Origin: an uncultured Acidobacteriota bacterium
GTDB taxonomy: Bacteria; Acidobacteriota; Thermoanaerobaculia; Multivoradales; UBA5704
Reading direction: 5' to 3'
Length of the DNA: 64,000 nt
NCBI GenBank assembly: GCA_963799925.1
Contig: CAWCYZ010000002.1
Span: 1,233,025-1,297,024 of the forward strand
The notes beneath the pieces are model-generated. The model had not been told where the DNA came from, searched no databases, and saw nothing but the letters and a program-made list of their open reading frames with translations. Positions 7,105 through 60,267 of this stretch are shown here, piece by piece (position 1 is the first letter of the stretch; each line of letters begins with the position of its first letter). Position numbers and translations under genes: made by a program.

Positions 7105-8562
7105 GTGCGCGCCGCGGGCCTCGTCGAGGGAGGCCTCCTGGCGCTCGCCCTTCTCGCCGGCTGCCGCCACGAGCCGGCCCGGCCGGGCAGCGGACCGATC
7201 GTCCTCGTCACCTTCGACGGCCTGCGGGCCGACATGGTCGGCAGCCTCGGCGGCGAGAAGGGGCTGACCCCCAACTTCGACCGCCTTGCCGCCGGCGCCG
7301 CCTGGGCGGGGCGGGCCATCGCGCCCTCCTCCTGGACGGTGCCGTCCATGGCGTCGCTGTGGACCGGCCTGCGCCCCTGGCAGCACCAGGCGATCGGCCC
7401 GGCGCGGCCGGTGCTCTCGGCAGATCTCCTCACTCTTCCCGAGGCCCTCCAGGCCGCCGGGTACCGCACCCGCGGCTTCCCCTCCGGCCCCTGGCTCACG
7501 CCGCGCTCGGGCTACGGCCGCGGCTTCGACGAGCTGGTCGCCTTCGGCGACGGCGAAGCGGCCGCCGCCCGGCTCGCGCATCTCTCGAGCGGGCGTGAAT
7601 TCGTCTGGATCCACATCCCCGAGCCGCACGTGCCGTGGGTGCGCCGGCCCTGGCTGCGGGATAACCTCCCCGGCGCTCTCCAGCGGGGGCTGCCAGGCGG
7701 CCTGCCGCGGAGCGTCGACGCCTTGGACCTGGCCGACTTCTCCGATCCGCAGAAGCCGCTCGCCGGCGACGACCGCGAGTCCTACCGGGCGCTCTACCTG
7801 CTGAACGTGGTATGGGCGGACATCCGGCTGGGGCTCCTCCTGGATGCGATCCAGGCGAGCGGCCAGTGGGGGCGCACTCTCCTCGTGGTCACCGCGGCCG
7901 AGGGCGAGGCGCTGGGCGAGGATGGGCAGGTGCTCACCGGCGGCGACCTCGGCCGCGAGCTGATCGAGGTGCCCCTCGCGATCAAGCTCCCGGCCGGCCC
8001 GGCGCGCGGGCTCGCGCCGGGGCTCTCCGTACGGCGCGGCGAGCGGCCGGCCACCCAGCGGCTCTTCGCGACCCTCCTCGAAGCGGCCGGCGAGGCGCCC
8101 GCCCCGGCGGTGGCGCCGAGCCTCTGGCGCGGCGCCCGGGCGGAGGGCGACGGCCGCTCCGAGCCGGTTCTCTCCGAGCTCTACCTCTCAGGGGGGGAGA
8201 ACCGCCTCTCGCTGGTCGATGGCGACGACCAGCTCCTCTGGGAGACGCGCTTCGTGCCGCCATCGCCGGCGCTCCACCGCGCGAGCTTCGCGAGCCGGGT
8301 ACGGCCGGTGCTGCCGCCCATGGCCTTCCCCGCCGGCTTCACCCGGCTCGCCGCCGCCTTCGACGCCGCGCTGCCGCTCTCCGGCGCCCCGCCGGCGCTC
8401 TCCCTGAGACGCTGGGACGGGGCGAGCGGCAGCCGCCCGCGCACCGACCCCGCCCGCCGCACCGCCCTCGCCGCCCGTCTCGAGTCCGCCTGGAGGAGCT
8501 TCCTGCCCGAGGAGGCGACTCCGGCGGAGGAAGCCCGCGAGCGCGCGCTTCCGGAGCGATAG
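7105..8562 (+). CDS. sulfatase-like hydrolase/transferase (alkaline phosphatase superfamily)
   Basis: IVLVTFDGLRADMVG...LTPNFDRLAAG...SSWTVPSMASLWTGLRPWQH matches the metal-binding and nucleophile region of sulfatase / phosphoethanolamine-transferase type enzymes. Thr occupies the Cys/Ser position. Confidence 0.75.
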   Translation: MRAAGLVEGGLLALALLAGCRHEPARPGSGPIVLVTFDGLRADMVGSLGGEKGLTPNFDRLAAGAAWAGRAIAPSSWTVPSMASLWTGLRPWQHQAIGPARPVLSADLLTLPEALQAAGYRTRGFPSGPWLTPRSGYGRGFDELVAFGDGEAAAARLAHLSSGREFVWIHIPEPHVPWVRRPWLRDNLPGALQRGLPGGLPRSVDALDLADFSDPQKPLAGDDRESYRALYLLNVVWADIRLGLLLDAIQASGQWGRTLLVVTAAEGEALGEDGQVLTGGDLGRELIEVPLAIKLPAGPARGLAPGLSVRRGERPATQRLFATLLEAAGEAPAPAVAPSLWRGARAEGDGRSEPVLSELYLSGGENRLSLVDGDDQLLWETRFVPPSPALHRASFASRVRPVLPPMAFPAGFTRLAAAFDAALPLSGAPPALSLRRWDGASGSRPRTDPARRTALAARLESAWRSFLPEEATPAEEARERALPER

Positions 8563-23636: not shown

Positions 23637-23945
23637 ATGGCCGAGACCCGCAAGCTCTCCGTGCGCTGCCCGGACTGCGGCTCCGATTTAGTGATCGACG
23701 CCGCGACGGGCGAGGTCCTCTCGCACCGCAAGCCGAAGCAGCCGCTGGCGGGCGGCAAGGACCTCGATAGCCTCTTCCGCGAGATGGAGACCGGGCGGGA
23801 GAAGGCCGAGGGCGTCTTCACGCGCGAGGTCGCGGCGATGAAGGACCGCGACCGCCTGCTCGAGGAGAAGTTCCGCGAGGCCCTGAAGCGCGCCGAGGAA
23901 GACCCCGACGAAGGCCGGCCGCCGCGCCCGTTCGACCTCGACTGA
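23637..23945 (+). CDS. small zinc-ribbon protein with charged C-terminal helix
   Basis: 102-aa ORF. The N-terminal RCPDCGSDLVID may be half of a zinc ribbon. Composition is coherent. No family is recognised. Confidence 0.55.
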   Translation: MAETRKLSVRCPDCGSDLVIDAATGEVLSHRKPKQPLAGGKDLDSLFREMETGREKAEGVFTREVAAMKDRDRLLEEKFREALKRAEEDPDEGRPPRPFDLD

Positions 23946-23957
23946 AGCGCGGCGGCA

Positions 23958-24237
23958 GGAAGGATCGGCGGTAGGCTGGAAGCGTCCGGCGTCGAGGGGA
24001 AAGATTCAGCGTAGAGCGGAAGAATCGGTTGTCGCGAGGAAGGATCCGATGTTTCCTCGCTGCAGGCGTTGAAGAGGGGAAATATTCGATTCTTCCCCGC
24101 TGCAGGCGTTGAAGCAGGCGAACATTCGATTCTTCCCCGCTACAGGCGCTGAAGCAGGCGAACATTCGATTGTTCCTCGCTACAGGCGCTGAAGTGGGCG
24201 AAGGATTCGATTCCCCTTCCTCATGCGCCAGATTGGC
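23958..24237. repeat. 7-unit tandem array of a 40-bp repeat (20-bp sub-period at the left end) carrying GAA-N2-3-TTC palindromes
   Basis: Units start at 23958, 23998, 24038, 24078, 24118, 24158 and 24198. The units at 24118 and 24158 are 36/40 identical (GCGAACATTCGATTCTTCCCCGCTACAGGCGCTGAAGCAG). The array degenerates toward both ends. Confidence 0.85.
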
Positions 24238-24411
24238 GCGATCCAGCAAATCAGCTATACTCTCGTCGGCTGCACCGGCCCGCCCCTTCGCCGCTCCCGT
24301 GGCCCCGAGCTCGAACCCAATCCGCTCAACATGCGATTTCGTGGTGGCTCTGATCCGGGGCGAGGACCGTTGTTTGCAACGAGCCCATGAGGCTCGGGAA
24401 AGGACATCGCT

Positions 24412-25950
24412 TTGAGTCCATGGTGGCTGCGCCCCACAGCAGAGGGCGCAACGAACGAATCAGACGCTGACGAGAAACGCGAGGCCGAGAGCCGCGCCGC
24501 CACACCGGCGGCCGAGCCCGCGGCGGCACCCCCGGCCACCGAGCCGGCGCACCAGGAGCCGCCCCCCGCGAGCTTCCCGCGCTCCCAGGCCTTCGAGCCC
24601 CGCTCCGTCGCCCCTCCTGCCGAAGCTCCTTCCGTCTGGGAGCCCCGCGAGTCTCCCCGTGAAACCGCGGCATCCGAGCCCGCATCGCTCCAGGCCGAGG
24701 CTCAATCCCCGGCGCTCCACACGGCTGAGCCCCACCGCCATGCCGAGCGCTTCCATGACGCCGCCGCCTCGACCACCGAACCGGCAGCCATCGCGACGGA
24801 AGCCGCGAGCCATGCCCCCGAGGTGAGCCCGGCGCTCGACGGCGAAACCGCCGAGCGCGAGGAAGGCCAGGGCGAGGCCGGGGGCGAGAAGAAGCGCTCG
24901 CGCTCGCGCCGCAGCCGCGGCGGACGCCGCAAGTCCGGCCGCAGCGCCGGAGCCGCCCCGTCGCCCGGTACGCCGGGCGCGGACGACGAGGACGACGATT
25001 TCGAGGTCGAGGACGAGGCGCTCGAGACACCGGAGACACAGCCGGCCCCCGCGCCGGTCGCCCAGATCCATCACCGCGGACGGGAGGCGCGAGAGGCGCG
25101 TGAGACGGCGAAGCCGGCGGAGAACAACTTCTACCTGCCGCCCGACTACGAGATCTCGCCGCGCGAGGTCTTCGTGCCGGTCGAGCGCCCCCGCAGCCAC
25201 AACGACGAGCGCAAGATCGCCCTCTTCTGCGATCTCGAGAACATCGCTCTCGGCGTGCGCGACTCGGAGGTCGGCAAGTTCGACATCCACCGCGTGCTCG
25301 AGCGGCTCCTCGAGAAGGGCAAGATCATCGTCAAGAAGGCCTACGCCGACTGGGAGCGCTACAGCGACTACAAGCGTCCCTTCCACGAGGCCGCGATCGA
25401 GCTGATCGACATCCCGCAGAAGTATTACTCGGGCAAGAACAGCGCCGACATCAAGATGGTGGTCGACGCGATGGACCTCTCCTACTCGAAGGAGCACCTC
25501 GACACCTTCGTCCTCCTCTCGGGCGACAGCGACTTCTCGCCGCTGGTCTCGAAGCTCAAGGAGAACAACAAGTACGTCATCGGGATCGGGGTGAAGAACT
25601 CGTCGTCGAACCTCCTGGTCGACAACTGCGACGAGTTCATCTACTACGAGGACGTCTGGCGCGACTCCGCCAAGGCGCCCCAGCTCGCCGGCCTCACCAA
25701 GAAGGCGGCCGAGGCGTTCAGCCTGATGGTCGAGTCGATCCAGGCGCTGGTGCGCGAGAACAAGGACGTCCTCTGGGGCTCGATGATCAAGCAGACGATG
25801 CAGCGCAAGAAGCCCTCGTTCAACGAAGGCTACTTCGGCTACAGCACGTTCTCCGAGCTGCTCGAGGACGCCGAGCGCAAGAACATCATCAAGCTGAAGA
25901 AGGACCAGCGCTCCGGCACCTACATCGTGACCGGCTTCGCCAAGCGCTAG
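24412..25950 (+). CDS. NYN (LabA-like PIN) domain protein with C-terminal OST-HTH/LOTUS domain and ~270-aa disordered N-terminus
   Basis: KIALFCDLENIALGV...VKKAYADWERYS...IPQKYYSGKNSADIKMVVDAMDL...FVLLSGDSDFSPLVSKLKENNKYVIGIG matches NYN/LabA. The C-terminus LWGSMIKQTMQRKKPSFNEGYFGYSTFSELLEDAE matches OST-HTH. The TTG start at 24412 is uncertain. Confidence 0.85.
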   Translation: MSPWWLRPTAEGATNESDADEKREAESRAATPAAEPAAAPPATEPAHQEPPPASFPRSQAFEPRSVAPPAEAPSVWEPRESPRETAASEPASLQAEAQSPALHTAEPHRHAERFHDAAASTTEPAAIATEAASHAPEVSPALDGETAEREEGQGEAGGEKKRSRSRRSRGGRRKSGRSAGAAPSPGTPGADDEDDDFEVEDEALETPETQPAPAPVAQIHHRGREAREARETAKPAENNFYLPPDYEISPREVFVPVERPRSHNDERKIALFCDLENIALGVRDSEVGKFDIHRVLERLLEKGKIIVKKAYADWERYSDYKRPFHEAAIELIDIPQKYYSGKNSADIKMVVDAMDLSYSKEHLDTFVLLSGDSDFSPLVSKLKENNKYVIGIGVKNSSSNLLVDNCDEFIYYEDVWRDSAKAPQLAGLTKKAAEAFSLMVESIQALVRENKDVLWGSMIKQTMQRKKPSFNEGYFGYSTFSELLEDAERKNIIKLKKDQRSGTYIVTGFAKR

Positions 25951-41812: not shown

Positions 41813-43105
41813 TCAAGTGAAGTGCTGGGAGATGGAGCGTAGGGTCCGCTCGAGGTCGGGGTCGCCGGAGCGCCGTTCCTCGATGTCCTTGACCGCGTAC
41901 ATCACCGTCGAGTGGTGTTTGTCGTTGAAGATCTTGCCGATCTCCGGATAGGAGAGCGGGGTGAGCTGGCGCAGGAGATACATCGCCATCTTGCGCGGGA
42001 AGACCACCTGCTGCGAGTTGTTCTTGCTCTTGATCTCCTTGACCGTCAAGCCGTAGTGGTGAGCCACCCGGCGCACCACCTCGTTGGGCTCGACGCGTTG
42101 CCCCTCGGGCGGCAGGATGTCCTTCAAGGTCTCGCGGGTGAGCTCGAGCGAGATCGGCTTGCCGGTCAAGGAAGAGAAAGCGATCACGCGGTTGAGCAGG
42201 CCTTCGAGCTCGCGGATGTTCGAGCGCACCTGTTGGGCGATGAAGTCGGCGACCGCCGGCGGCAGCTCGATCGCCTCGAAGTCCGCCTTGCGGCGGAGGA
42301 TCGCGACCTTGGTCTCGAGGTCCGGCGGCTGGATGTCGGCGATCAGCCCCCACTCGAAGCGGCTGCGCAGGCGCTCCTCGAGGGTCGGGATGTTTCGCGG
42401 CGACGAGTCGGACGAGAGGATGATCTGCTTCTGGCTGGTATAGAGCGTGTTGAAGGTGTGGAAGAACTCCTCCTGCGTCCGCTCCTTGTTGGCGAGGAAC
42501 TGGACGTCGTCGATCAGCAGCACGTCGATCGTCCGGTAGCGTTCGCGGAAAGCCGGCATGCGGTCGAAGCGGATCGAGTTGATCAGCTCGTTGACGAACT
42601 GCTCGGCTGCCAGGTAGAGGACGCGCAGCTGCGGGTGCGCCGTCTGGATGTGCGAGCCGATGGCGTGGAGGAGATGGGTCTTGCCGAGCCCGACTCCGCC
42701 GTAGAGGAAGAGCGGGTTGTAGCTCTGCGACGGCGCCTCGGCGACCGCCCGCGCCGCGGCGTGGGCGAACTGGTTCGAGCTGCCGACGACGAAGTTGGCG
42801 AACAGGTACTTGGGGTTGAAATGCCCGCGCCCGGTCGGCTCGACCGGCGGTGCCGCCGCCTTCTCCTCGAGCGAGAAGAGAACCTCGAACGAAGAGCCGC
42901 CGAGGCCGGCGACGGCGCGGTCGACCTGCGGCCGGAAGCTCTCCTCGAGGGTGTGGAGGAAGCGGGAGTTGGGCGCCAGCAGGACGAGGCGGTCCGCGTG
43001 CTCGCTCTGCACCTTGAGCGGCCGGAACCAGGTGGAGAATTCCTCGGGGTCGAGCTGTTGCTGGAGCTGTCGTTGGAGCCGTAGCCAGAGGGATGGATCA
43101 GACAT
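41813..43105 (-). CDS. dnaA: chromosomal replication initiator protein DnaA
   Basis: NPLFLYGGVGLGKTHLLHAIG (Walker A), LLIDDVQFL, the FHTFNTL sensor, and the C-terminal DNA-binding helix MYLLRQLT.LSYPEIGKIFN.KHHSTVMYA. Confidence 0.97.
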   Translation of the reverse strand: MSDPSLWLRLQRQLQQQLDPEEFSTWFRPLKVQSEHADRLVLLAPNSRFLHTLEESFRPQVDRAVAGLGGSSFEVLFSLEEKAAAPPVEPTGRGHFNPKYLFANFVVGSSNQFAHAAARAVAEAPSQSYNPLFLYGGVGLGKTHLLHAIGSHIQTAHPQLRVLYLAAEQFVNELINSIRFDRMPAFRERYRTIDVLLIDDVQFLANKERTQEEFFHTFNTLYTSQKQIILSSDSSPRNIPTLEERLRSRFEWGLIADIQPPDLETKVAILRRKADFEAIELPPAVADFIAQQVRSNIRELEGLLNRVIAFSSLTGKPISLELTRETLKDILPPEGQRVEPNEVVRRVAHHYGLTVKEIKSKNNSQQVVFPRKMAMYLLRQLTPLSYPEIGKIFNDKHHSTVMYAVKDIEERRSGDPDLERTLRSISQHFT

Positions 43106-46087: not shown

Positions 46088-46564
46088 TCATCGGCCGCCG
46101 GGGCGCCGGCGCCGCCCGAGGGCGTAGCGACGCGCGACGTCGACCAGGAAGTCCCCCTCGAGCGCCTTCCTGCCGACGATCATGCGGAACAGCATCCCCG
46201 TGCGGTCGGTCAGGGTGAGGAGGATCCGCTTGCGGACCGCTCCCATCACCAGGTCGGTCGCGATCACCGGGCGGATCTCGGGGTGGCCGCCCGAGTCGGT
46301 CACCTGGACGCGCCCCAGGAGGGGGGCGCGGGCGACCATCACCCGCTGGGGATGGCGGCGGTCGAAGGCTACGGTGAGCTCGACCTCGGCGCCGCCTGCC
46401 TCCGCGTCCTCGAAGACCTGGAGGGAGCTGACGTGGAGCGAGGAGGTGCGGGCGCCGGTGTCCATCTTCGCCTTGAGCCGGTGGATACCGAGCTCGGGGA
46501 GGTCGAGGTACTCCTTCCAACCCACCACGACCGGTCGCGCCCGTCTCTCGGCGGAGGAGAACAT
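46088..46564 (-). CDS. RimK-associated ATP-dependent zinc protease-like (retropepsin-like, DUF785/RimB-type) protein
   Basis: VGWKEYLDLPELGIHRLKAKMDTGARTSSLHV matches the family motif G-W-x-E-x-V-x-L-P...AK.DTGA.TS.LH. It lies immediately upstream of rimK. Confidence 0.75.
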   Translation of the reverse strand: MFSSAERRARPVVVGWKEYLDLPELGIHRLKAKMDTGARTSSLHVSSLQVFEDAEAGGAEVELTVAFDRRHPQRVMVARAPLLGRVQVTDSGGHPEIRPVIATDLVMGAVRKRILLTLTDRTGMLFRMIVGRKALEGDFLVDVARRYALGRRRRPGGR

Positions 46565-46969
46565 CCACGACGATCATACAGAGCCGAAGAAGAAATCGAC
46601 GTCCGTGAAAGAAACGGCCGGCGCGGGTGGTACGGCGTGCACAATCGGCAATGCGCGGGCTCTCCCCTGGGAGGTGCAGCGCCCCGGAGCCGGGCGGCGG
46701 AAGGCTGCGCCCAGCCCTTCCGGCGATCTCCTTGCATAGGTGGAAACAACTAGCAATCAATACGTTAGCCCGGGTTCGTCGTCCTCGCGGCCGGCGGCGG
46801 GCCGCGCGCAAGAGAAGGCTGGCACGTCGGTTGCTTCGACGCGGGACAGGCTTCATAGCGTTACGGGGGAGGTTCCACCCACCAAACCAGTTCCCGCCAT
46901 GACGGGAGGTCTTCTGATCTCTCTCACCTTCCACCCCGCCCCCTTCTTAGGGACTCGCTCTGCACGACA

Positions 46970-46997
46970 CCCAACCGGAGAGTTGGGGCCTCCCCCC
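46970..46997. repeat. 28-nt direct repeat, copy 1 (CCCAACCGGAGAGTTGGGGCCTCCCCCC)
   Basis: 27/28 identical to 47217-47244. It contains the local hairpin CCCAAC-cggaga-GTTGGG. Confidence 0.8.
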
Positions 46998-47216
46998 GAC
47001 GCACCCTTCCTCGGGTGCGTCCGTCGCACGGTATGAACCGAAGGAATCCCGGAGCGGGCATGGGTGTTGCACAGGACAATCGGTACGATGACGAATGGTA
47101 CGCGGGGAGGCACCTCCAACCACACTTTTATCCTGCCTAAAACTTTGAGATCGTTCGCGATCTCACCCCCTAGAAAGCTAGCCTACATCCCCTATCCACA
47201 GGGGTAGATCCAAGAA

Positions 47217-47244
47217 CCCAACCGGAGAGATGGGGCCTCCCCCC
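47217..47244. repeat. 28-nt direct repeat, copy 2 (CCCAACCGGAGAGATGGGGCCTCCCCCC)
   Basis: 27/28 identical to 46970-46997, 247 nt downstream in the same orientation. Confidence 0.8.
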
Positions 47245-47382
47245 TACTCTTTTCCTAAACGAAAAGCGGGGCACGCCCCGCGGCCCTCGGGCCGCGGGGC
47301 TGACTCGTGTCCGCCAGCATCGTCACGCCGAGCGCGACCCCAACTGCCAAATTGGCCCACGCACCGCGCCTATACTGACGCA

Positions 47383-48441
47383 GTGCGGCACGCCGAGCTC
47401 CTCGCCTGGTTCGACCGCCACCGGCGCGATCTGCCGTGGCGGCGGACGCGCGATCCCTATCGCATCTGGCTCTCCGAGGTGATGCTCCAGCAGACCCGGG
47501 TCGAGACGGTGCTCCCCTATTACGAACGCTTCCTCGCCCGCTTCCCGCGCGTCGAGGATCTGGCGGCCGCGGCGATCGAGGACGTGCTCGCCCTCTGGTC
47601 GGGGCTCGGCTACTACCGGCGCGCCCGCCAGCTCCACGCCGCGGCGCGGCGGGTGGTCGAGCGTGGCGGTTTCCCGGCGACCGCGGCAGGATGGCGCGAG
47701 CTCCCCGGCGTGGGTGCCTATACGGCAGCCGCGGTCGCCAGCATCGCCTTCGGCGAGGCGGTCGCGGTGATGGACGGCAACGTCGAGCGCGTGATCTCCC
47801 GCCTCCTCGCCGCTGCCGAGGATCCACACGGGGCCGCGGCCCGGCGGCGGCTCCTCGCGGCGGTCGCCGAGCTGCTCGATCCTGCGCGCCCGGGCGACGG
47901 CAACCAGGCCCTGATGGAGCTGGGGGCGACTCTCTGCGCACCGCGGCGGCCGCGCTGCCTCCTCTGCCCGTTGCAGCCGGGCTGCCGGGCGGCCGCGGAA
48001 GGTGACCCCGAGCGCTACCCGACGCTGCGGCCGCGCCGCGAGCGCCAGCGGCTGCGGCTGGTGGCGGCGGTCGTGGAGCAGGGGACGGTCGATGGGCGGG
48101 AAGGGGAGGTCCTCCTCGTCCGCCGGCCGGAGGGGAGCTCTCTCCTCGCCGGGACCTGGGAGGTGCCGTGGATCGAGGCCGCCGGCCGGCGTTCGGCGGC
48201 GGCGGGGCTCGCGGTGCGCTACGGCGGCGCCTGGAAGCTCGGTCCCCGCCTGGCGCAGGTGCGGCACTCGATCACCCACCGCGACCTCGAGGTGGCGATC
48301 CATCGCGCCGAGCTGGCCGGCGGCGGCGAGGTGGCCGAAGGCGTCGAGGCGGGGTGGTTCGACGGTGCGAGCCGAGCCGGGCTGCCGCTGTCCTCGCTGG
48401 TCGGCAAGGTGCTCGGAGCGCTGGAAGTCCCCGCGAGCTAG
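47383..48441 (+). CDS. mutY: A/G-specific adenine DNA glycosylase MutY
   Basis: The in-frame GTG at 47383 gives VRHAELLAWFDRHRRDLPWRRTRDPYRIWLSEVMLQQTRVETVLPYYERFL..., the HhH-GPD region GLGYYRRAR...LPGVGAYTAAAV, the Fe-S cluster CAPRRPRCLLCPLQPGC, and a NUDIX-like C-terminal domain. Confidence 0.88.
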   Translation: MRHAELLAWFDRHRRDLPWRRTRDPYRIWLSEVMLQQTRVETVLPYYERFLARFPRVEDLAAAAIEDVLALWSGLGYYRRARQLHAAARRVVERGGFPATAAGWRELPGVGAYTAAAVASIAFGEAVAVMDGNVERVISRLLAAAEDPHGAAARRRLLAAVAELLDPARPGDGNQALMELGATLCAPRRPRCLLCPLQPGCRAAAEGDPERYPTLRPRRERQRLRLVAAVVEQGTVDGREGEVLLVRRPEGSSLLAGTWEVPWIEAAGRRSAAAGLAVRYGGAWKLGPRLAQVRHSITHRDLEVAIHRAELAGGGEVAEGVEAGWFDGASRAGLPLSSLVGKVLGALEVPAS

Positions 48442-52365: not shown

Positions 52366-54158
52366 TCAATCCTCTCTTCCGATCGCGGGAAAGCTTCCGT
52401 GTTCCTCCACCTTCTCGACGCGGCCGCCGAAGATGTCGAGGACAGTCTGAATGGTGGGGTTGGCCTCGACCAGCTCGAGCTTGACCGTCGAGAGGTCGGG
52501 CGCGATCGCGGCGGCCGTCCGCTGGCCCGCGCCGGCGAGCAGGGTGAATCCGGTCCCCGCGCCCCAGGCGTGGGCGAGCGCCTGCTCCAGGACCTCGCGG
52601 TTGTTGCCGCGGTCGAGGCGCTGCGGCAGCCAGGGATCGCCGGATGAGTGGACGATCACCAGCCGGCCGTCCTCGAAGCGCAGGTCCTCGGCCGCCCGCA
52701 GGTGGGCGGCGAGCGGCTGCTTGAGCTTCTCGAGCTCCTGGAGGAAGGCCTCGAGGCGCTCGCCGCCCCGCGAGTCGCGGGCGGGAGCGGCGGCCGGCAT
52801 CGCGGGCTCGGGGGCGGCCGCGCGGTGCGGCGCGGGCCGATCGGTGAGCGCTTCGCGGCCGCGAGCTTCCGCCGGCGCTTGCGGAGCGGCGGGGGTGCGC
52901 CGGCGGCAGCGGTGTGAGCCGCCGGAGGCGGGGATGGCGCTCCGGAAGCTGCCGAAGCCATGGCGCGCGGCGCCGTCCGAGCCGCCGGAGGGGGAGCGGG
53001 CAGCGCGACCGGGCGTCCCCCGACCGGTCCCGCCGGCGCCAGGCCGGAGAGCAGCTCCTCGATCCGGGTGAGCTTCGGCAGCTCGGCGGCGCGCAGCCAG
53101 GCGATCTCGACGGCGAGCGCGCCGGCCTCGCTGCGCCGCACCATCTGCTCGCTGGCGAGAAGCTGCTGGAGGAGGCGCAGGAGGTTCTCGTAGCCCGCCG
53201 CCTTGGCCGTGGTGGCGAGGGCCGCCGCCTCCTCGCCCGGCAGATCGATCTGGCCGGGGTTGCCGCCCATGGCGAGGTGGAGGCCGTCGCGGCAGAAGGC
53301 GAGGAACTGGCCGTAGACGTGCCGCGGGTCCCAGCCCTCGTCCTCGACCCTGCCGATGGCGGCCGAGACCGCGGCGCCGTCCCCCCCGAGGATGCCGTGG
53401 AGGAGGCGGGCGAAGAGGGCGGTGTCGAGCCCGCCCAGGAGGCGGACCGCCTCCTCGTCGGAGATCGATCCCGAGCCGAAGGTGGCGAGCTGGTCCAAGA
53501 GCGCGACGGCGTCGCGGACGCTCCCCTCGCCCGCCCGCGCGATCAGGCGCAGGGCCGTGTCGCTCGCCTGGATCTCCTCGGAGCGGCAGATCTCGCCCAG
53601 GAGGGCGACGACCTCGGCCGCCGGCACGCGCCGGAAGTGGAACTCCTGGCAGCGCGAGAGGATGGTCGCCGGGACGGCCTCGATCTCGGTGGTGGCGAAG
53701 ATGAAGACGAGGTGGGGCGGCGGCTCTTCGACGATCTTCAGCAACGCGTCGAAGGCCTGGCGGGAGAGGCGGTGGATCTCGTCCAGGACCACCACCTTGT
53801 AGCGGTCGCGCGCCGGCCCGTAGCGGAGGCTCTCGGTGAGCTCGCGGACCTGCTCGACCTTCGAATAGGTGGCGGCGTCGACCTCGATGACGTCCATGTC
53901 CGCCCCGCGCGTGATCTCGACGCAGGCCGCGCACTCGTTGCACGGATCGGCCGCCGGCCCCCGCTCACAGTTGAGGGCCTTGGCGAGCACCCGCGCCGCG
54001 GTCGTCTTGCCGACGCCGCGGATCCCCGAGAACAGATAGGCCTGGGCGATCCGGCCCTCCTGCAGGGCGTTGCGCAGAGCGGTGACGATCGGCTCCTGGC
54101 CGACGAGGCTGGAAAAGTTCTGCGGGCGCCACTTGCGGGCGAGAACCTGGTAGGTCAT
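52366..54158 (-). CDS. dnaX: DNA polymerase III subunit gamma/tau; the tau C-terminal domain is reachable only via a -1 frame change at a homopolymer
   Basis: N-terminus MTYQVLARKWRPQNFSSLVGQE...FSGIRGVGKTTAARVLAKALNCE...CNECAACVEI...VVVLDEIHRLS...SRCQEFHF. The conserved C-terminus (ERLEAFLQELEKLKQPLAAHL...IQTVLDIFGGRVEKVEE) is in the frame of ORF 52366-53943. The junction maps to the G5 run at 52891-52895. Confidence 0.88.
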
Positions 54159-54169
54159 GACGACGGGGC

Positions 54170-54302
54170 GGCAGTGGCCGACGAAGGGTTCCGGTTGAGC
54201 TGCGGCACTCGATGCGCCGACCTTATCGCTGCTCCCTTCCGGGCCTGACGAGGTTCGGTGGCGACCGATGCACAGGACCCGAACCCTTCGTCCGCCACTG
54301 CC
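54170..54302 (-). ncRNA. ffs: signal recognition particle RNA (small/4.5S type)
   Basis: The minus strand reads GGCAGUGGCGGACGAAGGGUUC...GUCAGGCCCGGAAGGGAGCAGCG...GAACCCUUCGUCGGCCACUGCC. This gives a long closing helix plus the conserved domain-IV motif GUCAGG.CCGGAAGG.AGCAGC. It lies immediately upstream of dnaX, a common arrangement. Confidence 0.85.
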
Positions 54303-54362
54303 GGAAGGGTCATCGTATGTCCTGGGGTCGGGGATGTAAAGGTGGGTTGCCGGGGCTGAGAG

Positions 54363-54390
54363 CCCTCGCGCCCGCGAGAGAAAAGGAGAC
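54363..54390 (+). repeat. 28-bp direct repeat copy 1 (CCCTCGCGCCCGCGAGAGAAAAGGAGAC): palindrome CTCGCG-CC-CGCGAG plus an orphan Shine-Dalgarno
   Basis: Identical 28/28 to 58449-58476. No ATG/GTG/TTG occurs within 20 nt downstream of this copy. Confidence 0.9.
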
Positions 54391-54468
54391 GCGGCGGCCG
54401 GCTCGAGGCGGCTACCGTCTCGCTATACTCCGGGCCAGCTGCATTGTCCCGCAGGGGAGCTCCCGCCT

Positions 54469-55532
54469 ATGCCCATCCCGACCGAGCCGATCGGCAGTAT
54501 CCCGAGACCTCTGGAGCTGATCGAGGCGATCGCGGCCGCGGACGGCACGGACCCGCGCCTGGAACCGCTCTACGAGGAGGCGGTCCGCGACACCATCGAG
54601 CGCTTCGAGGCCACGGGATCGCCGGTCATCACCGATGGCGAGCAGCGGAAGTACCACAACTTCTGGACCTACTGCGTGCAAGGGATGCCGAACACGGCGC
54701 CGGACGGTTTCAAGATCCCGTTCTCGGCCGGCCACACGCGCCGGATGCTGCGCCTGACCGGCGGCCCTTTCCGCTACCGGCGGCACGGCCGACCGCTATC
54801 TGGACGCGGCCCTGCGCTATGCCCGCCGGCCGGTCAAGCAGGCGGTCATCTCGCCGTCGGCCTTGAGCCTCATGTACCCGGTCGACGAGATCCCCGGCTA
54901 TCCCCGCGAGCGGTTCATCGAGGACCTGCTGCGGGAGCACGAGGCGGAAGTCCGCCGGTGCCTGCAAAAGGGCGCGTACAAGGTCCAGATCGATTTCACG
55001 GAAGGGCGGCTGGCGGTCAAGATCGACCCTTCGGGAGATCTCCTCCACCGCTTCATCGACCTCAACAATCTCGCGCTGTCGCGGTTCTCCGCGGCGGATC
55101 GCCAGCGCCTCGGCGTGCACACCTGCCCGGGCAGCGACCGCGACTCGACGCACAGCGCGGACGTCGATTACGCCGAGCTGTTGCCCAGCCTGTTCCAGCT
55201 GAAGGTCGGGAGCTTCTACGTCGCCCTGGCGGGCGAGAAGGACCGCGTCCGCGTGCTGGAGATCATCCGCGAGCACCTGAAGCCGGGCCAGCGGGTCTTC
55301 GTCGGCGTCATCGCGCCGATCGACCCGCGCATCGAGACGCCGGAGGAGGTCCGCGACCGGGTGCTCGAGGCGGCCGAGTACATCCCGCTGCGAGCAGCTC
55401 GGGACCACGGACGACTGCGGCTTCTCCCCCTTCTGCGACGACACCACGACGATCCGCGACACGGCCTTCGCGAAGATCCGCGCGCGGGTGCTCGGCACGG
55501 CGCTCGCCGCGGCAGAGCTCGGGGTCGGCTGA
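54469..55532 (+). pseudogene. cobalamin-independent methionine synthase II (MetE C-domain-like, Meth_synt_2) family gene with two +1 frameshifts
   Basis: Three consecutive frames together read MPIPTEPIGSIPRP...VITDGEQRKYHNF...GGPFRYRRH / ADRYLDAALRYARRPVKQAVISPSALSLMYP...GVHTCPG...FYVALAGEKDR...VLEAAEYIPL / EQLGTTDDCGFSPF...AAELGVG*. The shifts are at about 54787 and 55391. Confidence 0.8.
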
Positions 55533-57907
55533 TGGCCGCCGACGACGACGAGGAACGGCGCCTGCGGTCGGTCGCGCTGCAGAACGCCCATGCCATCCTC
55601 CGCGCCCGGCAGCAGGCCGAGCGGGAGCTCGCCGCCGAGCGGGAGCGGCTGCGGATCACCCTCGCGAGCATCGGCGACGCGGTGATCAGCACCGACGCCG
55701 AAGGCCGGGTGACGTACCTCAACGGGGTGGCCGAGGCGCTGACCGGGTGGACCCAGGCCGAAGCCGCGGGCCGGCCCCTGCCGGAGGTCTTCCACATCGT
55801 CAACGAGCACACCCGCCAGCCGGCCGAGAACCCCGCCCTCCAGGCGCTGCGGGAGGGGGTGGTCGTCGGGCTGGCGAACCACACCGTCCTCATCGCCCGC
55901 GACGGGACCGAGCGGCCGATCGACGACAGCGCCGCCCCCATGCTGGACGAGTCCGGCGCCCCGGTGGGCGTGGTGCTCGTCTTCCGCGACGTGACCGAGC
56001 GCCGGCGGGCCGAGGAGGTCCAGGCGCGGCTCGCCGCCATCGTCGAGTCGTCCCAGGACGCGATCATCAGCAAGACCCTCGAAGGCGTCATCCGGACGTG
56101 GAACGCCGGCGCCGAGCGGCTCTTCGGGTACACGGCCGAGGAGGCCGTCGGCCGGCCGATCACGCTCATCATCCCCCGGAGCGGCTGGACGAGGAGGAGA
56201 TGATCCTCTCCCGGCATCGCTCGCGGCGAGCCGATCGAGCACTTCGAGACGGTCCGGGTGGCCAAGGACGGCCGCCGGCTCCACATCTCGCTCACCGTCT
56301 CCCCGGTCCGCGACGCGGAGGGCCGCATCATCGGGGCGTCGAAAGTCGCCCGCGACGTGACCGAGACGGAAGCGGGCGGAGGAGGCCCTGCGGGCCAGCG
56401 AGCTGCGTTTCCGCACCCTCACCGCCCATGCGCCCGTCGGCATCTTCATGACCGACCGGGACGGCGACTGCCTGTTCGTGAACGAGTGCTGGAGCGCGAT
56501 GGCCGGGCTGTCCCCCGAGGAGGCGCGGGGCGCCGGTTGGATCCGCGCCCTGCACCCTGACGACCGGGAGCGGATCTCTCGCGCCTGGTATGCCGCGGCC
56601 GAAGCGCGGCGGCCGTTCGCCGAGGAGTACCGCTTCCGCACGCCGCGGGGAGAGGTGACGTGGATCCACGGTCGGGCCGTCGAGCTCCTCGACGAGGCGG
56701 GACGGGTCAGCGGCTATCTCGGCACGCTCACCGACGTCACGCAGCGCCGGGAGGCCGTCGAAGCGCTCGAGGAGGCCGACCGCCGCAAGGACGAGTTCCT
56801 CGCCCTGCTGGCCCACGAGCTGAGGAATCCGCTGGCTCCGCTGCGCAACGGCCTCGAGGTGATGCGGCTGGCCTCCGGCGACGCGAAGGTCGTCGCGGCG
56901 GCGCAGGACATGATGGACCGCCAGCTCTCCCACATGGTGCGCCTGGTCGACGACCTGCTCGACGTGTCCCGCATCAGCCGCAACAAGATGGAGCTGCGCC
57001 GCGCCCGGGTGCTGCTCGCGGACGTGGTCCGCGGCGCGGTGGAGACCGCCCGTCCGGCGCTCGAGGCGGTCGGGCACGAGCTCACGGTCGCGCTCCCGCC
57101 GGAGCCGGTCGCCCTCGACGCCGACCTCACCCGGCTCGCCCAGGTGTTCGGCAACCTGCTCGACAACAGCGCCAAGTACACCGAGCCGGGCGGGCGCATC
57201 CGGCTCACCGCGAGGCGGGACGGCGAGCAGGTCCTGGTGGCGGTACGAGGACACCGGGATCGGCATCCCTGCCTCGGCCCTGCGGAGCATCTTCGACATG
57301 TTCAGCCAGGTGGACCGATCCATCGAGCGGAGCACGGGCGGCCTGGGAATCGGGCTCGCGCTCGTCAAGGGCCTGGTCGAGATGCACGGCGGGACGGTCG
57401 AGGCGGCGAGCCCCGGTCAGGGCCAGGGCAGCACGTTCACGGTCAGGCTGCCGGTCCTGCAGGACCGGGACGGAGCCGTCGTCCGGCGCGCCGGCCGGGG
57501 AAAGCACGGGCGCCGCCGCCTCGCGGAGGCGGCGCATCCTGGTGGTGGACGACAACCGGGACTCGGCGGAGTCCATGGCGCTGATGCTCGAGCTCCTGGG
57601 GAACGAGAACCGGACCGCGCACGACGGCCTCGAGGCGGTGGAGCTGGCCGAGCAGTTCCGCCCGCACGTGATCCTGATGGACATCGGGATGCCGAAGCTC
57701 AACGGCTACGAGGCGACGCGGCGCATCCGCGAGCAGCCCTGGGGGCGCGACATCGCCATCATCGCGCTGACCGGCTGGGGCCAGGAGGAGGACCGCCTCA
57801 AGTCCAAGGAGGTCGGCTGCGACGGCCACCTGGTGAAGCCGATCCAGCTGCTCGACCTGCAGAAGCTCCTGGCGGAGCTGCCGGGCGGCAGCGGCTCGCA
57901 GACCTAG
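55532..57907 (+). pseudogene. cytosolic PAS-PAS-PAS hybrid sensor histidine kinase / response regulator with at least five frameshifts
   Basis: The ATG overlaps the upstream TGA. PAS modules (ITLASIGDAVISTD..., IVESSQDAIISKTLEG.I..WN.GAE.LFGY, GIFMTDRDGDCLFVNECW), HisKA (DEFLALLAHELRNPL), HATPase (NLLDNSAKYT, [V]EDTGIGIP, GGLGIGLALVK) and REC (RILVVDDNRDSAE...ILMDIGMPKLNG...GCDGHLVKP) are spread over three frames. The shifts are at about 56173-56177, 56215, 56366, 57246 and 57440-57530. Confidence 0.85.
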
Positions 57908-58020
57908 CCCGGATTATTCATGAGCCGTCGTCCGCGGTGGCCGCGACCGCAGATTGCGCCGAACGGCAGGGTGTCATGAGGTGGCGAGCGGACCGCCCAG
58001 CGAACATTCCCACCCTGGGG

Positions 58021-58269
58021 GTAGAGACGCCCCAGTCCGTAACCACGGACCTCGCGGGTCCACTGACGTCGGGGCGTCTCTTTTCGGCCACGAATCGCCG
58101 TGCCTGCGGGATAACCCCCGCATGGGATCCATTCGTCTACCGCCGAGGCGTGCCGCCGGCGGCGTTGCCGCCGAGGCGTGCGCCGCCGTTGGTGGCCGTT
58201 GGTGGCGTGGAGACGCCCCGACGACGGCGGACTGAGCAGGTCCGTGGTCGGGGACTGGGGCGTCTCTAC
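58021..58269. repeat. REPIN/MITE-like element: two 57-nt palindromic units in inverted orientation (58024-58080, 58210-58266) around a 129-nt repeat-containing core
   Basis: Each unit is closed by GAGACGCCCC...GGGGCGTCTC. The outer 32 nt, GTAGAGACGCCCCAGTCCGTAACCACGGACCT, match the reverse complement of 58238-58269 at 28/32. The core holds CCGCCGAGGCGTGC x2 and GTTGGTGGC x2. Confidence 0.6.
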
Positions 58270-58448
58270 GGCGGCGGGTCCCAGCGCCGCGCCGGCTCCC
58301 GGGGAGTCAGCTCTCACACTCTTATCAATAGAGGCGGGCTCGACCGCGCTCGGTGCGCCGCCGGCTCGCGGCAGGGCTCCGGTCCTCGGACTCTTCGAAA
58401 GAGGCGGACGATAAAGGCTCTACCGCGTGTGTCACTGCCGGTCCGTAA

Positions 58449-58476
58449 CCCTCGCGCCCGCGAGAGAAAAGGAGAC
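58449..58476 (+). repeat. 28-bp direct repeat copy 2, providing the Shine-Dalgarno of the Cys-rich peptide gene
   Basis: Identical to 54363-54390. AAGGAG (58469-58474) lies 5 nt upstream of the ATG at 58480. Confidence 0.9.
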
Positions 58477-58479
58477 TCC

Positions 58480-58782
58480 ATGAAGCGCGTCCTGCTCGCC
58501 CTCAGCCTGACCGCCGTCCTCGCCGCTCCGGCCTTCGCCGCGTCCGCGTCCCCAGCTCTCCATCCAGCGACGGCCGCCGTCGCGGCGCCGGCGGCCGCCG
58601 GCCTCTTCATGCCGCTGGCGCCGCCGCTGCCGAGCTTCCTCGCCACCTCCGCGGCGGCGGATCGAACGGCGACCCAGGCCGGGGTCCTCTCGCACCCCTG
58701 CCCTCAGATCGGACCCACCTGCTGCGGCGTCCTGCGCGGACCCGACGGCTGCTTCTACTGCACCGATTACAGCTGCTTCTAA
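58480..58782 (+). CDS. small secreted protein with a 6-cysteine C-terminal module
   Basis: Strong SD. Signal peptide MKRVLLALSLTAVLAAPAFA, an Ala/Pro-rich spacer, then HPCPQIGPTCCGVLRGPDGCFYCTDYSCF*. It is embedded in a longer spurious ORF (57298-58782). Confidence 0.55.
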   Translation: MKRVLLALSLTAVLAAPAFAASASPALHPATAAVAAPAAAGLFMPLAPPLPSFLATSAAADRTATQAGVLSHPCPQIGPTCCGVLRGPDGCFYCTDYSCF

Positions 58783-58790
58783 CGGCACTA

Positions 58791-58820
58791 GGCCGCCGCG
58801 GCCGCCCGGCCGCGGTGGCC
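58791..58820 (+). terminator. GC-rich hairpin downstream of the peptide gene (no U tract)
   Basis: GGCCGCCGCGGCC-gccc-GGCCGCGGTGGCC (13 bp, one G.U). A second hairpin follows: GAGGCTGCC...GGCAGCCTC (58829-58868). Confidence 0.4.
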
Positions 58821-58920
58821 AAATGCTTGAGGCTGCCCGCCCGCCGCCGCGTCCTTCGCGGCAGCCTCGCCCGGCCGGCGGATTGCCGCGGTACGATGCA
58901 CGGGAGTCGGAGGAGGCGAA

Positions 58921-59439
58921 TTGGGACGTCCGGGAGCCGATGAGGCTGCACCCTACTACTTTCGTTACATCGACCTGGTGGCGGGCGATGACGTGGTCCG
59001 CTACCTCGCGGCGCAACTCGAGGCGGCCACGCCCGTCCTCTCCGGCATCTCGGAGGAGATGTCCCTCCACCGCTACGCGGCAGAGAAGTGGAGCATCCGC
59101 CAGGTGCTCTGCCACGTGAGCGACACCGAGCGGGTCTTAGCCTTCCGGGCCCTCTGGTTCGGCCGCGGCTTCGACACGCCTCTGCCGAGCTTCGACCAAG
59201 AGGTCAGTGCCGCCGGGGCGAGGGCCGACGAAGTGCCCTGGGCTCACCACGTCGAAGAGCTCCGCGCCGTGCGTCTGGCGACCCTGTCCCTCTTCCGCCA
59301 CCTGCCGGCCGAGGCGTGGGAGCGTCGCGGCATCGCCAGCGGCAACCCCTTCACCGTGCGCGCCCTGGCCTACCTCGCGGCCGGTCACCTCGCTCACCAC
59401 CTCGCGATCCTTCACGAGAGGTATCTCGGCGCGCCGTGA
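58921..59439 (+). CDS. DinB-superfamily (DinB_2) protein
   Basis: TTG start with GGAGGAGG upstream. W.IRQVLCHVSDTERV...(F)D..., and ...GHLAHHLAILHERY, the His triad of the DinB fold. Confidence 0.8.
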   Translation: MGRPGADEAAPYYFRYIDLVAGDDVVRYLAAQLEAATPVLSGISEEMSLHRYAAEKWSIRQVLCHVSDTERVLAFRALWFGRGFDTPLPSFDQEVSAAGARADEVPWAHHVEELRAVRLATLSLFRHLPAEAWERRGIASGNPFTVRALAYLAAGHLAHHLAILHERYLGAP

Positions 59440-59533
59440 TCCCACGGCTGAGCCCTCGCGGGCGTCTCCCCGGAGCTGGGTAGCCGAACGGTGATGCCGA
59501 AATGTCCTCTGGGTGGGTAAGCGTCGACTGCGA

Positions 59534-59623
59534 TGGCGGAGAGGGTGGGATTCGAACCCACGGACCGGTTGCCCGGTCAACGGTTTTCGAGACCGTCCCA
59601 TTCAACCACTCTGGCACCTCTCC
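59534..59623 (-). tRNA. tRNA-Ser (CGA), CCA encoded
   Basis: Minus strand GGAGAGGTGCCAGAGTGG...ACGGT-CTCGAAA-ACCGT, a long variable arm, GTGGGTTCGAATCCCAC-CCTCTCC-G-CCA. 90 nt. Confidence 0.93.
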
Positions 59624-59636
59624 GGGTTGCTGCGTG

Positions 59637-59727
<91 letters not shown>

Positions 59728-59784
59728 TGGTCTGAGAAAGAACGCGCCGCGGCGTCCCGTTTCGGGGACCGCGAGCCCCGCATC

Positions 59785-60267
59785 CTATGCCATCCGCGGC
59801 CGGCCGCGCCGCAGATCGGCGAAGAAGCCGGAGAGGAGCGCCCCGCACTCCTCGGCGAGCACCCCGGCGGTCACCTCCAGCCGGTGGTTCAACCGCGGGT
59901 CCTGGACCAGGTTGCCCAGGGTGCCGCAGTAGCCGGCCTTGGGGTCGGCCGCGCCGTAGACCAGCCGCTCGATCCGCGCCGCGACGAGCGCCCCGGCGCA
60001 CATCGGGCAGGGCTCCAGGGTGACGTAGAGCGTCGTCCCGGCGAGCCGCCAGCCGCTACAACGCGCCGCCGCCTGGCGGATCGCCAGCAGCTCGGCATGG
60101 GCCAGCGGGTCGCCGTCGGTCTCCCGGCGGTTGTAGCCGCGGCCGAGAACCTCCGGCGGCTCGCCCCCGATCACCAGGGCGCCGATCGGCACCTCGCCGA
60201 TCGCCGCCGCCTGCCGGGCCAGGTCCAGGGCCGCTTCCATCCACGCCCTGTCCTCGTCACTCGTCAC
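59785..60267 (-). CDS. tadA: tRNA adenosine(34) deaminase
   Basis: W...AL..A..A...GEVPIGA..., AHAELLAIRQA, and TLYVTLEPCPMCAGAL (the H(C)AE...PCxxC zinc site). Confidence 0.93.
   Translation of the reverse strand: MTSDEDRAWMEAALDLARQAAAIGEVPIGALVIGGEPPEVLGRGYNRRETDGDPLAHAELLAIRQAAARCSGWRLAGTTLYVTLEPCPMCAGALVAARIERLVYGAADPKAGYCGTLGNLVQDPRLNHRLEVTAGVLAEECGALLSGFFADLRRGRPRMA

Follow-up and report, generated by a model that had tools for sequence, protein, structure and literature searches.

A methionine synthase-like/kinase operon between 28-bp direct repeats beside ffs in an uncultured member of the Thermoanaerobaculia: a candidate strain-level insertion

A 64,000-nt stretch of DNA from an uncultured soil bacterium of the Thermoanaerobaculia (Acidobacteriota), called the window below, carries a block (54391-58448) that is enclosed by two copies of the 28-mer CCCTCGCGCCCGCGAGAGAAAAGGAGAC. 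The block lies between ffs, the gene of the small signal recognition particle (SRP) RNA, and a gene for a Cys-rich secreted peptide, and it holds a two-gene operon for a MetE-like protein and a hybrid histidine kinase. It is absent from a conspecific strain and from the relatives compared, and both of its genes are intact once single-nucleotide indels are corrected. We read it, with a probability of about one half, as a strain-level insertion into the leader of the peptide gene by a recombinase-independent, Campbell-type crossover, the frameshifts in the cargo being consensus errors.

The 28-mer occurs exactly twice in the window, both times on the + strand (54363-54390 and 58449-58476, 28/28 identical, 4086 nt from start to start); on this the exact search and the shuffles agree with the initial annotation, which had described the same perfect repeat. 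No further copy was found in the 64 kb at up to 3 mismatches, and none of 100 dinucleotide shuffles gave a match. The repeat is the second-longest exact direct repeat of the window, after a 30-mer shared by the two tRNA-Ser genes, the next being 22 nt or shorter. In the 100 nt that flank each copy to the left and to the right, similarity does not exceed that of shuffled controls, so the 28-mer is sharply bounded; a larger, diverged duplicate of the ffs promoter region was rejected, the repeat flanks being unrelated. In front of the peptide gene, GGGGCTGAGAG directly before the 28-mer would mark an empty site and GGTCCGTAA a filled one.

The right copy serves the peptide gene (58480..58782, + strand, 100 aa with a signal peptide) as its leader and ribosome-binding site, as can be read from the sequence: AAGGAG stands 5 nt 5' of the ATG at 58480, as had been noted before. 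The left copy has the same hairpin (CUCGC-GCCC-GCGAG) and the same AAGGAG. Its earlier description as an orphan Shine-Dalgarno sequence holds, since no ATG, GTG or TTG follows 54390 at a usable distance and the Shine-Dalgarno tail is 78 nt from the ATG of the MetE-like gene. In an insertion, the 28-mer would be the leader of the peptide gene (5' hairpin plus Shine-Dalgarno sequence), duplicated as a by-product of the event; the left copy would be a non-functional relic and the right copy would still serve the peptide gene.

The conspecific comparison was made with a single sequence, L081, a 97-kb metagenome contig of the Joint Genome Institute (JGI) to which an exact-protein look-up of YbaB had led. 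Over 12.3 kb its nucleotide identity to the window is 96.7%, and the gene order is alike on both sides of the block. The homology stops at 54364, 2 nt into the left 28-mer, and the first gene shared again is that of a DinB_2 family protein (58921..59439, + strand, 94% aa identity). The interval from the ffs promoter to DinB, 4466 bp in the window (54365..58830), is replaced by 512 bp in L081, where the block is missing and one gene (7503-7817, minus strand), encoding a secreted Cys-rich peptide of 104 aa, stands directly beside ffs. The 28-mer is absent from L081, and only AAAAGGAGAC before the peptide ATG is common to both strains. The two peptides are unrelated as DNA and show marginal protein similarity. 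Both have about 100 aa and combine a signal peptide with an Ala/Pro-rich linker and a C-terminus rich in Cys. The ffs-DinB slot has the look of a hypervariable peptide cassette, and the comparison supports the view that a peptide gene beside ffs would be the basic state and the block an extra. In a collection of 5.8 billion proteins no protein at least 90% identical to the MetE-like protein was found, although the sample of L081 is included there, so that the conspecific strain probably lacks the operon.

The relatives are 80 species-level Thermoanaerobaculia loci fetched around dnaX. In none of the 80 were the MetE-like gene, the kinase, the peptide gene, DinB or the 28-mer found within 10 kb, and a fuzzy search allowing up to 6 mismatches gave no match to the 28-mer in these loci. 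On the ffs side, by blastn end-points, every one of them loses homology to the window at 54341/2, just past the -35 box, and regains it at 59533 in inverted orientation. All 80 keep the arrangement tRNA-Ser(cga) <- tRNA-Ser(gga) <- tadA, divergent from ffs -> dnaX. The tadA/tRNA-Ser module of the window (59534-60267) is inverted relative to ffs-dnaX when compared with these relatives, where the module abuts ffs; the species of the window thus has a local inversion or rearrangement, shared with L081. In a metagenome scan with the DinB protein, the relatives returned were all of at most 69% identity, and beside none of them did a Cys-rich peptide gene stand convincingly; the contexts of the 90% and 80% DinB homologues were unrelated.

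The spacer between ffs and tadA in the relatives ranges from 0.25 to 3.5 kb and its cargo varies by genome. Upstream of ffs, for example, L025 has a BlaR/BlaI-like pair, L022 a large membrane protein and L001 (1-960) two more small genes, and spacers with differing cargo were seen in L002, L010, L022, L025 and L029. Since the cargo differs among relatives, the space upstream of ffs is generally plastic, and across the class its gene content has changed time and again. The initial annotation had proposed an insertion beside ffs, to be traced by synteny through alleles with a single 28-mer. The lack of the block in L081, with its order ffs-peptide-DinB in 512 bp, and in the 80 relatives bears out the first half of this proposal in so far as the block is a lineage-specific insertion/deletion difference; the empty site with one 28-mer was not seen, and L081 has a different peptide gene and carries no 28-mer at all.

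The first cargo gene (54469..55532, + strand) belongs to the MetE-II family (Meth_synt_2, cobalamin-independent methionine synthase II), and the second (55532..57907, + strand) encodes the hybrid histidine kinase, with three PAS domains, HisKA, HATPase_c and a receiver; the kinase ATG overlaps the stop codon of the MetE-like gene (TGATG; ATGA-coupled). A codon-usage Viterbi pass found no other coding segment inside the block, and two open reading frames in the 541-bp spacer had no Pfam match. The GC content is even across the block, and its composition and codon usage match the host. Three other genomes (L082, L083 and L162) carry an orthologous operon. With that of L082, against which the indels were placed, the nucleotide identity is 86.8% and homology is confined to 54469-57886; to other genomes, too, the homology of the window operon is limited to coding sequence. 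The neighbourhood of the operon differs in each of the three genomes and no direct repeats flank it there; nor was a 28-mer-like sequence found upstream of it in L082 and L083. The operon is conserved in the Thermoanaerobaculia and is native-type, ordinary cargo.

The two frameshifts that had been reported in the MetE-like gene, and the five or more in the kinase, proved to be exactly two and exactly five, all of 1 nt: insertions at 54788 and 55390 in the former, and a deletion at 56176 with insertions at 56215, 56365, 57245 and 57470 in the latter. After correction, the MetE-II protein has the length of its homologues (353 aa) and is 88-89% identical over 100% to Thermoanaerobaculia proteins, and the kinase (790 aa) has every domain and all kinase and receiver motifs intact. 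No in-frame stop is left once the seven indels are corrected, and there is no frame-breaking deletion of more than 1 nt. In three-taxon comparisons, the nonsynonymous divergence (dN) of the branch is 0.033 for the MetE-like gene vs 0.032 in an intact orthologue, and 0.047 for the kinase vs 0.049. None of the 148 positions that are invariant in 80 homologues is changed in the MetE-like protein of the window, individual homologues changing 0-3. The cargo had first been taken for decaying DNA, a view that these results contradict, together with an indel of the same type in dnaX.

Outside the block, this last indel is the one same-strand change of frame in the 64 kb that does not fall on a stop codon. 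It is a 1-nt deletion at 52883 relative to L081, at codon 425 of 597, after which the frame is identical to L081 at 167 of 172 positions. As dnaX is essential and yet frameshifted, the assembly evidently contains single-base consensus errors, and the dnaX indel is most likely one of them and not a programmed shift. The break at codon 425 is roughly where E. coli gamma ends. The proteins of the window are also found on a contig of more than 1 Mb, which suggests a long-read assembly, and the seven indels of the block are probably consensus errors of that assembly, like the one in dnaX. Errors would be concentrated in the block because its coverage or polishing was poor, which is to be expected if no more than a part of the population carries this stretch. 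Outside the block, the 1-nt differences from L081 are 16 insertions and 7 deletions in the window, which would fit an insertion-prone consensus; a 1-nt indel at 59795 alters the C-terminus of tadA (160 aa in the window, 149 aa in L081).

The frameshifts could instead be real, the inserted operon being redundant cargo under inactivation. Their density in the block exceeds that elsewhere in the window about 30-fold, most of them are not homopolymer errors, and the conspecific strain apparently lives without the operon. Against this stand the lack of nonsense codons and of larger frame-breaking deletions, branch dN values at the level of intact orthologues, the preserved invariant residues and motifs, and the same lesion in an essential gene, and we hold a real, very recent inactivation of the operon to be unlikely.

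A different explanation for the poor consensus would be that the block was threaded wrongly into the contig, for instance out of an unresolved loop of the assembly graph or from a related genome that co-occurred. Of the eight indels of the window that break a frame, seven lie inside the block, and no conspecific copy of the block genes is on record. The only homologue of the window peptide among the 5.8 billion proteins (97% identity) comes from a short-read Logan contig (c2zimUfZ, ERR11571141; DinB 100% identical) of only 1056 bp, which starts 95 nt 5' of the ATG. Misjoins, however, do not yield a sharply bounded 28-bp duplication on both sides. The host-like composition and codon usage, the intact ATGA coupling and terminator, and a contig of more than 1 Mb, whose junctions were probably spanned by long reads, likewise make an assembly artefact very doubtful.

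The claim of the initial annotation that the block has no integrase or transposase gene is upheld by the codon-usage pass and Pfam; with the MetE-like gene and the kinase as its only coding segments, it contains no transposase or recombinase gene. A search for terminal inverted repeats just inside the duplication (inner 80 nt) gave a best score of 12 vs a shuffle mean of 14.3, and the block and spacer had no relevant match among phages and plasmids. A transposon or insertion sequence (IS) with target-site duplication was rejected, as neither a transposase gene nor terminal inverted repeats are present. Direct repeats do bound the block at both ends (28/28), as in an integrative element. A search for an empty attB showed L081 to be without both the block and the 28-mer, and the 24-nt core of the repeat had no exact match in JGI metagenome contigs or in viral contigs.

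Other known repeat types were also considered. A CRISPR (clustered regularly interspaced short palindromic repeats) repeat, which would be 28-37 nt long and recur in an array with spacers of some 30-40 nt, was rejected, as the two copies stand 4086 nt apart with no array. An integron cassette was discarded as well: the 28-mer has no GTTRRRY core and no integrase-like segment was found from dnaX to the SurA-like gene. The dif/Xer site was rejected for an arm complementarity of 4/11, a palindrome that is off-centre (positions 3-16) and an identity to E. coli dif of 7-8/28. When repetitive extragenic palindromes (REP), their paired form (REPIN) and miniature inverted-repeat transposable elements (MITE) were considered, the 28-mer and a 60-nt hairpin arm of the block each had two copies in the 64 kb, and neither occurred in the relatives' loci searched.

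A site-specific recombinase acting in trans might still have used the 28-mer, the block then being an integrase-less module, comparable to a cis-mobilizable element or a dif module, that goes in and out at this site, and the slot beside ffs a cassette platform. Direct repeats around cargo that has no recombinase gene would fit, and so would an 18-nt imperfect palindrome in a repeat whose 28 bp is the size of a Xer site (PMC6449649). The repeat marks the exact start of the variable cassette in the window, cargo upstream of ffs differs in every relative examined, and the context of the operon differs per genome. But the site has two copies only, with none in the 80 relatives, the JGI metagenome contigs or the viral contigs; it lacks the 11-6-11 dyad (4/11 arm matches, 7-8/28 to E. 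coli dif), and the locus is near dnaA and not the terminus. Moreover, the cassette of L081 has no such site and the operon elsewhere is without flanking repeats, so we give this possibility decidedly little credence. In a broader form, the 28-mer would be the attachment site of an undescribed, recombinase-less cassette system of the Thermoanaerobaculia, in which a recombinase encoded elsewhere swaps whole operons and small secreted-peptide genes beside the ffs promoter. This would explain why the variable segment starts at the repeat and why the slot differs in every relative; we consider it highly improbable.

Both copies of the 28-mer might also pre-date the difference between the strains, as functional leaders (a 5' hairpin, with or without an operator) of the operon and of the peptide gene; the block would then never have been put between them, and the region of L081 would have been replaced wholesale. 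Either copy precedes a transcription unit on the + strand and also stands just upstream of a minus-strand sigma-70-like site (54340->54312 and 58435->58408), and since the entire segment, peptide gene included, is different in L081, that contig does not represent a simple deletion. This nevertheless strikes us as quite unlikely, for the identity spans the non-palindromic Shine-Dalgarno tail, which on the left is far from the MetE ATG and without a start codon, and the flanks of the repeat are unrelated. As RNA, the palindrome of the repeat forms a 5-bp stem with a tetraloop at -7.7 kcal/mol, not better than shuffles (z -1.4). The motif CTCGCGNNCGCGAG has 3 matches in the window at up to one mismatch vs 5.7 expected, hence no enrichment, and L082 and L083 lack the palindrome in front of their copy of the operon. 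The same weak hairpin and lack of enrichment, with the absence from the 80 relatives, argue against the palindrome as a shared operator, as had been suggested for the repeat.

The arrangement A-r-B-r-C, in which the flanks are unrelated and neither an enzyme gene nor ends of an element are present, favours a Campbell-type insertion. Its length points the same way: RecA-dependent recombination reportedly requires roughly 23-27 bp, a figure attributed to Shen and Huang in 1986, and 28 bp being just above that minimum favours insertion without a dedicated recombinase. We infer an insertion rather than a loss. A native-type MetE-II/kinase operon with its terminator hairpin would have been placed, recently, into the leader of the peptide gene beside the ffs promoter. 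The most likely route would be a single Campbell-type crossover at short identity with a circularised DNA fragment that carried the same 28 bases, and a repair process that copied the target on both sides would be equivalent. The block could be excised again by recombination from repeat to repeat, and machinery encoded by an element would not be involved.

Several points weigh against this insertion scenario. No allele with a single 28-mer was seen, and with a 28-mer-free L081 and its unrelated peptide gene the polarity of the event is not proven; the conspecific evidence is one sequence only, and the donor circle bearing these 28 bases is a hypothesis. On its left side the repeat begins within 2 nt of the edge of the strain-variable segment, a coincidence that a random crossover does not predict. 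Finally, 7 of the 8 frame-breaking indels of the window fall within 3.4 kb, and the six insertions are outside homopolymers.

Between the operon and the right 28-mer, a 249-nt hairpin (58021-58269) is made of two 60-nt arms that are 82% complementary, each closed by GAGACGCCCC...GGGGCGTCTC. The palindrome pair that had been noticed in the block was thereby located, as an inverted repeat at 58021-58080 / 58210-58269. Each arm itself forms a hairpin and the whole structure folds with a z of -6.2. A TTTT run follows arm 1, which probably acts as the terminator of the MetE-like/kinase operon. The region had no match in Rfam, and no copies beyond its own two arms were found in the window or in the relatives' loci searched. 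A sigma-70-like site (GTGACA-16-TATCGT, minus strand, 58435->58408) stands just left of the right 28-mer and is directed into the hairpin. The peptide encoded beyond it has six Cys within its last 28 residues, belongs to no Pfam family and is an orphan apart from the Logan homologue; weak matches to Vgb-lyase propeller blades were judged uninformative. Exact-protein look-ups of the peptide, tadA and recR gave no match, the recR query having a TTG-start residue problem.

On the left of the locus lie recR, ybaB, dnaX (52366-54158) and ffs, all on the minus strand. The ffs gene (54186..54284) matches Rfam RF00169 with 64.4 bits, is upstream of dnaX and is kept in all relatives, and a promoter scan placed its promoter, TTTACA-17-TACGAT, at 54312..54340 on the minus strand. 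To the right of DinB come tRNA-Ser(cga), tRNA-Ser(gga) and the tadA-like deaminase gene (59534..60267, the tRNAs at 59534-59727), on the minus strand, and then the SurA-like gene. The dnaA gene (41813-43105) is 9 kb from dnaX and, by the synteny of L081 (region beyond ~63.2 kb), rpmH-rnpA-yidD-yidC-jag should follow RuvA just past the right end of the window. From the nearness of dnaA and the rpmH-jag synteny, the window lies in the neighbourhood of the replication origin, which includes an 875-nt non-coding stretch at 46517-47391. Farther away, a gap of 784 nt without coding sequence (23943-24726) contains a 40-nt unit repeated four times in tandem (24053-24213, 88% matches).

Should the variant be borne out by reads, the locus would represent the gain of an operon without a recombinase, at 28 bp of identity, in an uncultured acidobacterial lineage, and the space upstream of ffs would be a hot spot of gene content that hosts hypervariable secreted Cys-rich peptides. 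The case also calls for caution, as an apparent insertion with decaying cargo may be a strain-level structural variant with a normal, conserved operon, whose frameshifts find their best explanation in local consensus errors of a metagenome assembly.

The block can be set beside several known systems. Cis-mobilizable elements (CIMEs) are islands that keep attL and attR and have lost the genes for integration and transfer (PMC6323972). Like them, the block is cargo between direct repeats, without integrase or transfer genes; unlike them, its repeat is not at the end of a tRNA or conserved gene, and it is a single element with no related integrative and conjugative element or integrase known here. 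In dif modules and in integrative mobile elements exploiting Xer (IMEX), XerC/XerD act at 28-bp sites with two 11-bp arms and inner inverted repeats around a 6-bp centre (PMC6449649). The block shares with these the 28-bp repeats, the recombinase-less module and the ordinary cargo genes, but its repeat has no 11-6-11 arms, the copies are direct and not alternating, and it is chromosomal and near the origin. Integron cassettes are likewise promoter-proximal cargo units with a palindromic separating site and a slot content that varies among strains; here, by contrast, no intI is present in the block or flanks, and the identical 28-bp copies have neither the GTTRRRY core nor an extended imperfect palindrome of the attC type. 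Exact copies of a target on both sides are also left by IS elements, and some members of the IS4 family (IS1549, IS1634) make unusually long target-site duplications, whereas the block has no transposase or terminal inverted repeats and carries a housekeeping-type operon as cargo. With Campbell-type integration or excision at a short identity the block has in common that direct copies of the crossover sequence bracket the insert, no enzyme of the element is needed, the event is reversible by recombination between the repeats and 28 bp is just above the reported minimum, but neither a circular donor nor an empty site was observed here. The block is a new instance, in an uncultured lineage, of a known type of event.

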